A stretch of DNA of 64,000 nt, taken from sequence record PP534475.1. The stretch is one strand, 5' to 3'. The notes beneath the pieces were generated by a model. The model was not told where the DNA came from. It saw nothing but the letters and a program-made list of their open reading frames with translations, and made no database searches. This document shows, piece after piece, positions 47,020 to 48,861 of this stretch. The first letter of the stretch is position 1. Each line of letters begins with the position of its first letter. Both the position numbers and the translations under genes were made by a program. The stretch comes from Escherichia phage YJin-2024a.

Positions 47020-47048
47020 TTGACATTTTCGCTGGGGTAGTGTAAAGT
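47020..47048 (+). promoter_or_regulatory. sigma70 promoter for the plus-strand island (TTGACA-17-TAAAGT)
   Basis: Perfect -35 TTGACA at 47020-47025; weaker -10. Confidence 0.5.
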
Positions 47049-47110
47049 ATATGTTATGGATGAGTGATCAAAGAGACACACATTTTCTATATACTAGGAG
47101 GTGTCAAAAA

Positions 47111-48103
47111 ATGACAGAAGAAGTAGCTAAGAGTCCTGAGACCGTCGCTAGCGTTGCAGCAGAACTGCACCGTCACGAGGAATCAGATAAGAAAAAGTGG
47201 GAGAAGGTCAGAGCCTACGAAGAGAAACATCGTGAACACGATGAAGATGATGAAGAAGATGACGATGATGAGTATTGTCATAAATATGGAAAACGTAAAA
47301 TGCAAGAACCAGTAAACGTATTCACTAGTGGCTTCCCTGGCCTAATGGGTGGTTACCCAGCAAACGCAGGTGCTTTCGGTGGTGAAGGTATGGGACTATT
47401 CGGAGCTATCCTAATCGGTGCTCTATTAACAGGCGGATTCGGTGGTTTCGGTGGATTCGGTGGACGTGGTGTAGTTGGTGAAGGTACCGCAGTTGATGCA
47501 GTACTTCAGAACCAAGATACCGCTAGTATTCTAGCAGCTATTAACACTACTCGTACAGAGGCTAACCAGGGTACTGGAGCTGTTTTAAGCGCAGTTAATA
47601 ATGGTTTTAGCCAGACATCCCAAAACCAGAGCCGTGATACTCAGTCTGTACTAACTACGATCTATGGTACAGGTGCTAATCTGTCTAATCAGATCTGCCA
47701 GGAAACTCGCAACGTTATTCAGGGTCAGTTCGATCTTTCTCGCCAGATTGATCAAGCTTTCGCAGCTAATCAGATAGCTCGTGCACAAGATAAGTTTGAT
47801 TCTGCACAGATCGCTTTCCAGCAGACTTTACAAACTAATAACCAGTTTGCCGCTGTTCAGGCTCAGATGTGTGCTAACCAGAACTCTCTGGAACGTCAGA
47901 TCGCTGAATGTTGCTGTGAACTTCAGACTGCGATTGCTGGTGTAACTACTGCGCGTATCCAGGATGAGTTAGACGCGTGTCGTCTACGTGAAGCAATCGC
48001 TGCGGGTAGCGGTGCTAACGGTCAGGTAATTAATCAAATCGCTTTAAGTCTTGGTGCTATCACTCAGACTCTGGCTGGTCTGCAGGCTAAACTGCCGGCT
48101 TAA
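47111..48103 (+). CDS. low-complexity protein: acidic N-terminus, Gly-zipper hydrophobic segment, Gln/Asn/Ala-rich C-terminal half
   Basis: AGGAGG RBS; DEDDEEDDDDE; GGFGGFGGFGG; long Q/N/T/A-rich region. Confidence 0.6.
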   Translation: MTEEVAKSPETVASVAAELHRHEESDKKKWEKVRAYEEKHREHDEDDEEDDDDEYCHKYGKRKMQEPVNVFTSGFPGLMGGYPANAGAFGGEGMGLFGAILIGALLTGGFGGFGGFGGRGVVGEGTAVDAVLQNQDTASILAAINTTRTEANQGTGAVLSAVNNGFSQTSQNQSRDTQSVLTTIYGTGANLSNQICQETRNVIQGQFDLSRQIDQAFAANQIARAQDKFDSAQIAFQQTLQTNNQFAAVQAQMCANQNSLERQIAECCCELQTAIAGVTTARIQDELDACRLREAIAAGSGANGQVINQIALSLGAITQTLAGLQAKLPA

Positions 48104-48124
48104 TATTAAGGGGAGGAGCCCATT

Positions 48125-48541
48125 ATGAGTAAATATGGTTTTGTAAATAACGGACTTAATCAAAGTATGGGCTCCCAGCAGCCCGTTCCGGGTCTGGATA
48201 ACCCCTACTTACAACAGTTGCAACAGCGTTTAGCAGAAGCGCAACAGATGCAGCAACAACTCCAGCAAAACCCTGGAAGTGTAAGTCCTATGCAAATGAT
48301 GCAGCAAATGAGCGGGCAGTCGCAAATGCCTCAACAAATGCAGCAACAGATGCCGCAGCAGCAAGTTCAGCAACAAACCCAACAACCGCAGGTTTCTGCG
48401 GAGGGACAGGCAGTACTAGCCCTTTTCGAAGACTTCGCAAAGACAGAGGATGGGAAACAGCTTGTATCACTTATGGGTAAGTTTAATAGCTTCTGCCAAA
48501 GCCAAGTTGCAAAAGCTCAAAATGGTGGTAATAACTCCTAA
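48125..48541 (+). CDS. Gln-rich (prion-like composition) protein
   Basis: GGAGGAG RBS; about 40 percent Gln in the central region. Confidence 0.55.
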   Translation: MSKYGFVNNGLNQSMGSQQPVPGLDNPYLQQLQQRLAEAQQMQQQLQQNPGSVSPMQMMQQMSGQSQMPQQMQQQMPQQQVQQQTQQPQVSAEGQAVLALFEDFAKTEDGKQLVSLMGKFNSFCQSQVAKAQNGGNNS

Positions 48542-48550
48542 GGAGAAATT

Positions 48551-48745
48551 ATGTGTTGCAGAAAATCTGTTTCGTGCTGCCCAATGCCTGTAGCACGTTG
48601 TTGCTCTCCAGCAATGTTTACGCAAATACCGGCGTTCAATCCGTTTGCCTTTAAGCCTACTCTTATCCTGCCCCCTAGAGTAGATTTTCAGTCAAGATTG
48701 GCCTCCCGTATGGGTGGTTGCTGTACACCGAGAGTGTGGTTCTAA
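48551..48745 (+). CDS. Cys-rich peptide with four CC doublets
   Basis: AAGGAGA RBS 7 nt upstream; MCCRK...CC...CC...CC. Confidence 0.45.
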   Translation: MCCRKSVSCCPMPVARCCSPAMFTQIPAFNPFAFKPTLILPPRVDFQSRLASRMGGCCTPRVWF

Positions 48746-48756
48746 ACCAAAAACAA

Positions 48757-48839
48757 AAGCCCCTGCCGAAAGGTAAGGGGCTTTTTCTTTTGCCTTAAAT
48801 ACAGAAAAGCCCTGCGCTCTCCAGGAAACGCAGGGCTTA
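48757..48839. terminator. bidirectional terminator region between convergent genes (two hairpins)
   Basis: AGCCCCT-loop-AGGGGCT followed by T-run; GCCCTGCG-loop-CGCAGGGC with T-run on the minus strand. Confidence 0.6.
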
Positions 48840-48861
48840 CTTCAGATGTTACATGCGGGTA

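Follow-up and report, generated by a model that had tools for sequence, protein, structure and literature searches.

A portable three-gene accessory cassette in the tRNA region of T5-like phages and the coiled-coil family of its first protein

In the tRNA region of T5-like phages a group of three genes is read in the opposite direction to all genes around it. What kind of genetic element is this group, and what might its proteins do for the phage? We addressed these questions with a stretch of 64,000 nucleotides from Escherichia phage YJin-2024a (sequence record PP534475.1), which is called the window in the following. The group consists of the genes g1 (47111..48103, coding for 330 amino acids), g2 (48125..48541, 138 amino acids) and g3 (48551..48745, 64 amino acids), all on the plus strand. 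They are the counterparts of T5p075, T5p076 and T5p077 in the T5 record AY734508. A first-pass annotation, made from the letters of the sequence, had described an autonomous unit whose proteins could not be placed in a family. Both statements stand, and the three open reading frames are found exactly where they had been placed. What the annotation missed is the portability of the unit, its nature as an island and the size of the family to which g1 belongs.

Our analysis shows that the unit is a self-contained accessory transcription unit of the moron type, non-essential and variably present. Sequence comparison further shows that lytic phages of the T5-like, N4-like and KPP23-like kinds have exchanged the three genes as a unit.

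A self-contained accessory unit shared by unrelated lytic phages

Comparison of the window by blastn with the Tequintavirus Bas33/HildyBeyeler (L020) reveals an island of 1,711 bp (47082..48792, plus strand) which is missing from Bas33. The flanks of the window at 46551-47081 and 48793-49900 align to Bas33, where they are joined by about 10 bp and the SPFH gene directly adjoins the primase-like gene. The island extends from just 5′ of the ribosome binding site of g1 through the terminator ter1, which is gone from Bas33 along with the three genes. Equivalent to window positions 46900-47081, Bas33 keeps the region of the promoter P12 (TTGATT...TAAAGT) as an orphan. Because this orphan region remains, the comparison suggests that the island was lost by Bas33 rather than gained by the other phages. 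The orphan promoter now faces the terminator of the SPFH gene directly.

The first-pass annotation had proposed a survey of the island across T5-like genomes. Its presence proves to be variable: it is precisely absent from Bas33, and of the 384 phage records with matching DNA in this region about 222 contain g1. With tblastn we detected g1 and g2 in 222 phage records each and g3 in 221, and the three genes occur essentially always together. Their left neighbor varies by genus, being a primase-like gene in Tequintavirus and a NadR-like gene in Epseptimavirus. The whole locus falls within the T5 st0 deletion annotated in AY734508; since the phage with this deletion is viable, the cassette is dispensable. 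The cassette-free Tequintaviruses are viable isolates. The published RNA-seq and proteomics of Bas33 contain no expression data on g1-g3, Bas33 being free of the island, and we found nothing in the literature on T5p075-077 (T5.075-077).

The surroundings are those of a T5-like (Tequintavirus) tRNA region. All 23 tRNA genes of the window are encoded by the minus strand, and the DNA of the window is 97-98% identical to that of many Salmonella and Escherichia T5-like phages. As the flanking tRNA genes and open reading frames are all on the minus strand, we can confirm that the cassette is a plus-strand unit amid minus-strand genes. It has its own signals for transcription and translation. The T5 record AY734508 annotates the promoter P12 upstream, the bidirectional terminator ter1 downstream and a major DNA nick just past ter1. 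In the window, P12 is the sigma-70-type promoter TTGACA-17-TAAAGT at 47020..47048 (plus strand), which matches the consensus at 10 of 12 positions with a 17-nucleotide spacer and had already been pointed out in the first-pass annotation. A promoter scan by itself does not rise above chance (1 site seen, 3.1 expected). The promoter is nevertheless credible because it is annotated in T5 and because it is conserved: the same hexamers with the same spacing are kept 5′ of the g1 gene of a distant T5-like contig (L041). Each of the three genes is preceded by a strong ribosome binding site, as had been noted: AGGAGG at 47096..47101 for g1, GGAGGAG at 48112..48118 for g2 and AAGGAG at 48540..48545 for g3, all on the plus strand. 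The motif in front of g3 is identical in three distant contigs (L041-L043).

The terminator ter1 (about 48755..48795) is part of the island and forms a hairpin with a U-run on both strands. The predicted folding energy is -22.8 kcal/mol for the plus strand (z = -4.3) and -21.2 kcal/mol for the minus strand (z = -2.6), and in T5 the stem is maintained through compensatory changes. The cassette had been thought to share one hairpin terminator with the convergent SPFH gene. Instead there are two separate hairpins. The terminator hairpin of the SPFH gene (48807..48838, minus strand, -22.9 kcal/mol) lies in the flank outside the island and is retained in island-free genomes (Bas33). The "major DNA single-chain interruption" of T5 maps by alignment to about position 48817/48818 on the minus strand at a conserved GCGC. 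This nick site sits inside the SPFH terminator hairpin just beyond the edge of the island, and hairpin and GCGC are common to the window, T5 and Bas33.

Morons of lambdoid phages have their own promoter and their own terminator, are oriented opposite to their neighbors, are precisely absent at the same locus in a close relative, are dispensable for lytic growth and move between unrelated phages. The cassette is alike in all these aspects, with Bas33 as the close relative. Thus the unit, equipped with a promoter and a terminator of its own, qualifies as a moron. Unlike the lambdoid morons, it comprises three co-inherited genes, its carriers are strictly lytic and its cargo is of no known function.

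The order g1-g2-g3 and nearly the same gene sizes are kept in phage KPP23, in an N4-like contig and in distant T5-like contigs. In the Pseudomonas siphophage KPP23 the homologs are ORF074, ORF073 and ORF072, with identities of 45% (g1), 46% (g2) and 27% (g3); the g3 protein of KPP23 has no cysteine. The KPP23 cassette stands first in an early/replication operon. It is flanked by two near-identical GC-rich hairpins (L003 4171-4198 and 6156-6181), which contain …GCCCTGGAGAAATCCGGGGC… and …GCCCTGGAGTAATCCGGGGC…, respectively. These hairpins could be reused terminators or recombination sites of cassette movement. In the N4-like contig, which encodes a virion RNA polymerase, the cassette is again located beside tRNA genes and g3 is an uncalled open reading frame of 49 amino acids. 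In the distant T5-like contigs g1 is about 43% identical to that of the window. A scan of IMG/VR with the g2 profile returned T5-like copies only. There are also signs of exchange on a smaller scale. The 3′ end of g3 (window 48719-48745) occurs as two alleles encoding …CCTPRVWF and …CCNKSIWF. They are spread over Tequintavirus and Epseptimavirus without following the genus, which suggests recombination within the cassette.

Two neighboring reading frames should be mentioned. On the minus strand, a 49-amino-acid open reading frame (46932-47081) overlaps P12 and is called a hypothetical protein in some records (e.g., PQ488695); it is probably spurious. A few kilobases downstream of the cassette the window encodes a SleB-like cell-wall hydrolase with a signal-peptide-like N-terminus (51435-51902, minus strand). 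Equivalents are found in two distant T5-like contigs that bear the cassette (L041 9380-9826 and L042 7208-7669, Pfam Hydrolase_2). This protein is often labelled "endolysin" and is encoded apart from the main cluster of holin, endolysin and spanin genes.

The three proteins of the cassette

The g1 protein (phrog_8119, E = 3e-204) can be divided into three parts. Residues 1-92 (47111..47386) form an N-terminal domain specific to this branch of the family, with a conserved helix at residues 9-44 followed by an acidic and His-rich disordered run. AlphaFold models residues ~11-40 with a pLDDT of 80-93. Because the domain of about 95 amino acids carries 24 acidic and 13 basic residues, its export is very unlikely. 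In some g1 proteins of Epseptimavirus (phage STG2, L008; P0008-P0013) the acidic run holds a His-rich insertion, HHYHHHHHHHEHY…, which by its composition looks like a metal-binding tract. Residues 93-118 (47387..47464), GMGLFGAILIGALLTGGFGGFGGFGG, follow as a hydrophobic, Gly-rich segment which resembles a transmembrane segment (hydrophobicity KD19 = 1.72); the models place a short helix at residues 96-106. The third part, residues 125-330 (47483..48100), is a Q/N/A/T-rich amphipathic helical rod with predicted helices at 127-171 and 177-327 and a hydrophobic periodicity of 3.6 residues (z = 5.2). The rod contains a triple-cysteine motif, C267-C268-C269 (codons at 47909..47917), which is invariant in A7 and A8 and, with the rod in its best-fitting heptad register, comes to lie on d, e and f. 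The protein ends with ...LQAKLPA and has no C-terminal transmembrane segment.

An acidic stretch, the run GGFGGFGGFGG and the CCC motif had been recognized in the first-pass annotation and are all present. A CxxxC motif, also claimed, does not exist, as the cysteines of g1 are at positions 56, 196, 254, 267-269 and 290. The Gly-rich segment had been described as a glycine zipper. Its glycines are spaced G95-G98-G103-G108, then (GGF)3; it is rather a (GGF)n run preceded by a short core of hydrophobic residues than a GxxxG pattern, and the glycine-zipper families of Pfam do not match g1 even at E values up to 1. Two AlphaFold runs (with 16 and 94 sequences) gave a pLDDT of 54-55 and essentially one extended helix from 127 to 327. 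The predicted structure is uninformative past the secondary structure, and Foldseek found no match of the g1 model in the PDB with E ≤ 0.001. Membrane association of g1, as had been proposed, is plausible in view of its sequence. The proposed self-assembly is likewise plausible, judging from the amphipathic periodicity of the rod and the extended helix in the AlphaFold models.

The g2 protein (T5p076 or T5.078 homolog, phrog_7894, E = 3e-80) has two conserved parts, an N-terminal helix and a C-terminal domain of 45 amino acids with an invariant cysteine, Cys124. In between lies a Q/P-rich linker of variable length. The glutamine content had been estimated at about 40%; it is 27.5% overall and reaches 48% only within residues 28-89. 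Thus the Gln richness lies in the variable linker, outside of the conserved parts. Neither a signal peptide nor a transmembrane segment was found in the g2 sequence. In several GenBank records, such as PQ462666, MW567727 and NC_106513, g2 is labelled "cAMP-dependent protein kinase catalytic subunit". The label finds no support in any search and seems to be an artefact, passed on between records, of a low-complexity match to the Q-rich stretch.

The small g3 protein (T5p077 homolog) is Pro- and aromatic-rich with an N-terminal cysteine cluster and an aromatic C-terminus. Its sequence opens with MCCRKSVSCC, and a hydrophobic signal is absent (best KD19 = 0.85). Its four CC doublets had been noted correctly and are located at residues 2-3, 9-10, 17-18 and 57-58. 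Except for that of KPP23, all copies of g3 start with a cysteine cluster (MCC or MCGCGC) and contain a further CC doublet inside the chain. Copies that are complete have a Pro/aromatic-rich middle part and most of them an aromatic residue at or beside the end. A metal or redox function had been considered on the basis of the composition. It finds no support here, and the CC doublets are only partly conserved, with fewer in the N4-like copy and none in KPP23.

Substitution patterns show that all three reading frames are real genes under purifying selection. Across nine T5-like genomes of two genera the ratio of nonsynonymous to synonymous substitution rates (dN/dS) is 0.13-0.17 for g1, 0.11-0.18 for g2 and 0.03-0.39 for g3. 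Stop codons occur in every other frame across g3, and g3 is intact in 220 of 221 records, mostly without being annotated in GenBank.

Could the proteins belong to a known system? Our searches bear out that none of the three can be placed in a characterized family. Searches of Pfam and NCBIfam with g1, g2, g3 and distant members yielded nothing significant, and neither did sequence and profile searches of the PDB. The PADLOC models did not match g1, g2 or g3; a crAss-type member gave only coiled-coil noise with E > 0.02. Direct membership exists in PHROG 8119/16490/9288 for g1 and in PHROG 7894 for g2, but these groups are of "unknown function" and provide no mechanism. With modest confidence we therefore regard the cargo as a new kind, since it matches no characterized system by the tests used, whereas the genetic element itself is of a known kind, a moron.

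The g1 family in crAss-like and other phages

The family of g1 was found stepwise. A first search gave 33 relatives and an exhaustive profile search 540 clusters at 50% identity. A word-indexed profile search then brought at least 4,751 clusters at 90% identity, none of them with a Pfam domain. Most clusters come from crAss-like contigs of about 90-105 kb. Profile-profile alignment with hhalign links the T5 type to the crAss type with a probability of 98.2% (E = 3.6e-14) and to the P0027/eiAU type with 99.2% (E = 2.8e-19). PHROGs divides the family into phrog_8119, 16490 and 9288, each of "unknown function"; at the level of sequence profiles we can confirm that they are one superfamily.

The members share a common design, in which a short N-terminus leads to a Gly/aromatic-rich segment and this to a helical rod of about 200 amino acids; the CCC motif is shared as well. 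In an alignment of 147 diverse representatives the CCC columns are the sole ones conserved to at least 90%. A C-terminal tail, typically Gly/aromatic-rich, is present in 146 of the 252 members outside the T5 branch and in none of the 28 members of the T5/N4/KPP23 branch. This branch differs also at the other end, as its hydrophobic segment starts at a median residue of 97.5 versus 37 elsewhere. The long charged N-terminal domain is confined to the T5/N4/KPP23 branch, and only this branch has g2 and g3. The small genes downstream of the crAss-type, eiAU and myovirus-type homologs were considered as equivalents of g2 and g3 and show no resemblance. Nor is g3 the split-off C-terminal tail of the single-protein members, since a profile of the 146 tails scores g3 like shuffled sequences.

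In the crassviruses the gene is accessory, being present in cr116_1 and absent from its subfamily relative crAss001. The crAss-like homologs are labelled "spike protein/glycoprotein" or "outer capsid protein/viral fiber". These labels are without structural backing because the head fibers of crAss001 are unrelated small proteins. We also considered the virion atlas of crAss001 as a guide to the location of the protein, but as the gene is absent from this phage the atlas is uninformative. The crAss-like homolog travels with a set of small genes (L017 7969-11236; L013 6538-9932; L015 7001-9557), encoding an excisionase-like helix-turn-helix protein, a beta-rich protein of about 130 amino acids, a coiled-coil protein of about 168 amino acids, a small highly charged protein, a DUF7841 protein and an HExxH protein. 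The whole block is absent from crAss001. In-frame TAG codons occur in several crAss-like genes including g1 homologs (L015, L018). Stop-codon reassignment occurs in some crAss-like phages, and the in-frame TAG codons are consistent with it.

The cultured carriers of the family all grow on Gram-negative hosts, namely Escherichia/Salmonella, Pseudomonas, Bacteroides, Vibrio, Edwardsiella and Aeromonas. Pfam searches over the 147 diverse members returned a single domain fusion. In P0260 (L021 399-1400), which has a crAss-type gene context, a DnaJ J-domain (Pfam E = 2.8e-29) replaces the hydrophobic head. It is known from a single contig (3.6 kb, 2.7x coverage) and may have arisen as a chimera via shared GGFGG repeats. 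If real, the fusion would put the rod into the cytoplasm.

Possible functions of the cassette

Which function would fit these properties? As the most likely reading we tentatively suggest that the cassette encodes an early-expressed, membrane-anchored coiled-coil complex which acts on the envelope of the infected cell. The cassette would be expressed early from its host-type promoter; we regard its placement as early-type because the sigma-70 promoter lies in the early/tRNA region of T5 and because the cassette heads the replication operon of KPP23. The g1 protein would enter the inner membrane by its hydrophobic Gly-rich segment with the N-terminus remaining in the cytoplasm. The rod would reach into the periplasm and form a coiled-coil oligomer, which could be locked by disulfides at the cysteine cluster in the manner of spanins. 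The g2 and g3 proteins, having no export signals, would remain cytoplasmic and attach to the N-terminal domain that is peculiar to this branch of g1 proteins. Such a complex might modify or protect the envelope; the exclusion of superinfecting phages and the stabilization of the envelope until lysis are examples. It would not serve virion building or canonical lysis.

Several findings speak for this model. The N-terminal extension of g1 and the pair g2 and g3 occur together, the segment of the T5 branch is of transmembrane grade (KD19 = 1.72), the charged N-terminal domain is very unlikely to be exported and the placement in T5 and KPP23 is early-type. The long amphipathic helix and the Gram-negative hosts of all cultured carriers are counted for it as well. 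Small accessory superinfection-exclusion proteins anchored in the membrane are known from lytic phages: Imm and Sp of T4 and Llp of T5 are early, envelope-located, non-essential and variably present. Proteins of this class have no sequence signature in common. By general analogy the cassette may be compared to them. It differs in that there is no sequence relation to Imm, Sp or Llp and in that g1, a coiled-coil protein, is far larger and has two partners.

Several observations weigh against the proposed membrane-anchored complex. Only 56 of 280 family members reach KD19 = 1.6, the eiAU homolog is barely hydrophobic, and lysine and arginine residues are almost absent around the hydrophobic head; with weak heads in most members a transmembrane anchor is not a family-wide feature. 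The g2 and g3 proteins have conserved cysteines, yet our model places them in another compartment than the CCC motif of g1. One member, on the single 2.7x contig, has a cytoplasmic J-domain joined straight to the rod. The crAss-like homologs are encoded in late structural or lysis-adjacent blocks and not early. The AlphaFold confidence is low. The topology of g1 is a predicted one, and an envelope or exclusion role of the cassette is putative. Finally, the Gram-negative host range of the family comes from tblastn only.

Some of these observations would also fit if g1 were a cytoplasmic or membrane-peripheral scaffold of head-rod-tail design which polymerizes in the infected cell. Here the Gly/aromatic segment would sit at the membrane interface and g3 and g2 would be cytoplasmic cross-linkers or adaptors. 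Intermediate filaments have a comparable layout, with Gly/aromatic-rich ends flanking a coiled-coil rod. The idea stays alive because of the weak hydrophobicity without charged flanks in most members, the cysteines of g2 and g3 and the J-domain fusion, which lacks a hydrophobic core. The Gly/aromatic-rich tails of the members outside the T5 branch, the predicted extended helix, the lack of export signals in g2 and g3 and the presence of conserved cysteines in all three proteins also fit. However, the segment of the T5 branch does meet the transmembrane threshold, the reducing cytoplasm would hardly allow disulfide cross-links, the J-domain fusion stems from one low-coverage contig and may be chimeric, and no signature of a filament family was found in the Pfam searches. 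In our view a scaffold of this kind is possible but rather unlikely.

A further explanation is that g1 is an auxiliary lysis or membrane-fusion factor which acts late in infection and resembles spanins or class I fusion proteins. We consider first the likeness to fusion proteins. The best sub-threshold matches in the PDB are influenza HA2 and the HR1 region of coronavirus S2, and many of them fall on one region, the Gly-rich segment plus the following helix. The segment of the T5 type opens with GLFGAI, as does the fusion peptide of HA2. The alignment of g1 covers residues 1-71 of HA2, with the Gly-rich segment corresponding to HA2 1-20. At the level of the database this similarity is not significant (E = 1.7 with phmmer against the PDB, E = 0.04-0.3 with profiles). 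A pairwise BLASTP comparison with HA2 gives E = 0.001, but this target had been picked after the database results were seen. With sub-threshold matches only we reject homology to HA2 or S2 and read the similarity as one of design: in the class I fusion subunits, too, a Gly-rich hydrophobic segment is followed by a heptad-like helix rich in N, Q, T and A. Unlike class I fusion proteins, g1 has neither a C-terminal membrane anchor nor a receptor-binding partner, and it is not a detected virion component in the T5 branch.

Turning to the spanins, the Rz/Rz1 proteins are disulfide-linked, and the cysteine-bearing coiled coils of g1 recall them. Inner membrane spanins combine an N-terminal transmembrane domain with a periplasmic coiled coil. 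In g1 a transmembrane-like segment is followed by a long helix that may lie in the periplasm, both of them behind the N-terminal domain of about 95 amino acids. A small Pro-rich protein of about 60 amino acids is encoded nearby and all known hosts are Gram-negative, in the spanin systems as in the cassette. In crAss-like phages, moreover, the homologs are located 1-2 kb from holin and endolysin genes. Unlike Rz, g1 is twice the size and has a whole domain before the hydrophobic segment, and unlike spanin genes the cassette is early-type in its promoter and position and dispensable. We reject a two-component spanin (Rz/Rz1) because g3 lacks a signal peptide and a lipobox, and because the T5-like phages and KPP23 own canonical spanins. 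The T5-like phage OSYSP encodes Rz-like spanins (orf150/151) beside holin and endolysin, and a published spanin survey lists KPP23 with its own two-component spanin. Taken together, we consider a late lysis or fusion factor unlikely.

We hold a broader proposal to be about equally doubtful. The g1 family might be an unrecognized and extremely abundant class of self-assembling coiled-coil proteins that build a cross-linked intracellular or envelope lattice in Gram-negative cells. In the T5/N4/KPP23 branch, such a lattice would consist of g1 as a membrane-anchored rod, g2 as an adaptor with a Q-rich linker and g3 as a Cys/Pro-rich cross-linker.

The cysteines allow yet another interpretation. 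The CCC of g1, Cys124 of g2 and the CC doublets of g3 might bind a metal, an iron-sulfur cluster or copper, or might relay thiol-disulfide exchange. Conserved cysteines in all three proteins and the His/Asp/Glu-rich N-terminus of some T5-like g1 variants would be in line with a metal or redox complex. We find it improbable, as g3 of KPP23 is free of cysteine, the number of cysteines in g3 varies, no known metal-binding motif or family was matched and the His-rich run is lineage-specific.

Little credence can be given to g1 as a fiber or spike of the virion, as the crAss-like annotations have it. Homologs are indeed encoded in or near structural modules of crAss-like phages, of eiAU and of a myovirus-like contig, and a long coiled coil is typical of fibers. 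Yet none of ORF072-074 is among the nine proteins that mass spectrometry identified in the KPP23 virion. In T5 the cassette belongs to the early region and is covered by st0, a deletion with which the phage is viable. Also, crAss001, for which a full structural atlas exists, is without the gene and has unrelated small proteins as head fibers, and a hydrophobic Gly-rich segment would be unusual in a soluble fiber.

That one or more of the reading frames, above all g3, is a chance open frame can practically be dismissed. The short length of g3, the lack of a match in PHROG or Pfam and its absence from the annotation of most records would speak for it, but g3 follows g2 with a strong ribosome binding site in five divergent lineages with its shared features kept, and its intactness, a dN/dS below 0.4 and the stops in the other frames contradict this explanation.

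Although our findings overturn no current view, they concern a classical model phage in which the cassette has been "hypothetical" since 2004, with g3 missing from most annotations. The portable three-gene module offers a testable handle, as natural pairs with and without the cassette exist (T5 or Bas32 versus Bas33). Should the complex act on the envelope, phage-phage competition or the control of the envelope would gain a new player. Should it self-assemble, it would be a structure of a new kind made by phages, and the cross-linked lattice considered above would represent a novel cellular structure of phage origin and no variant of spanins, exclusion proteins or virion fibers. Through g1, finally, T5 is tied to a family with thousands of members, mostly in crAss-like phages, for which there is no Pfam model. 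No viruses are more abundant in the human gut than the crAss-like phages. Thus a function solved in the tractable system of T5 and E. coli could annotate a large block of unknown proteins of the gut virome.

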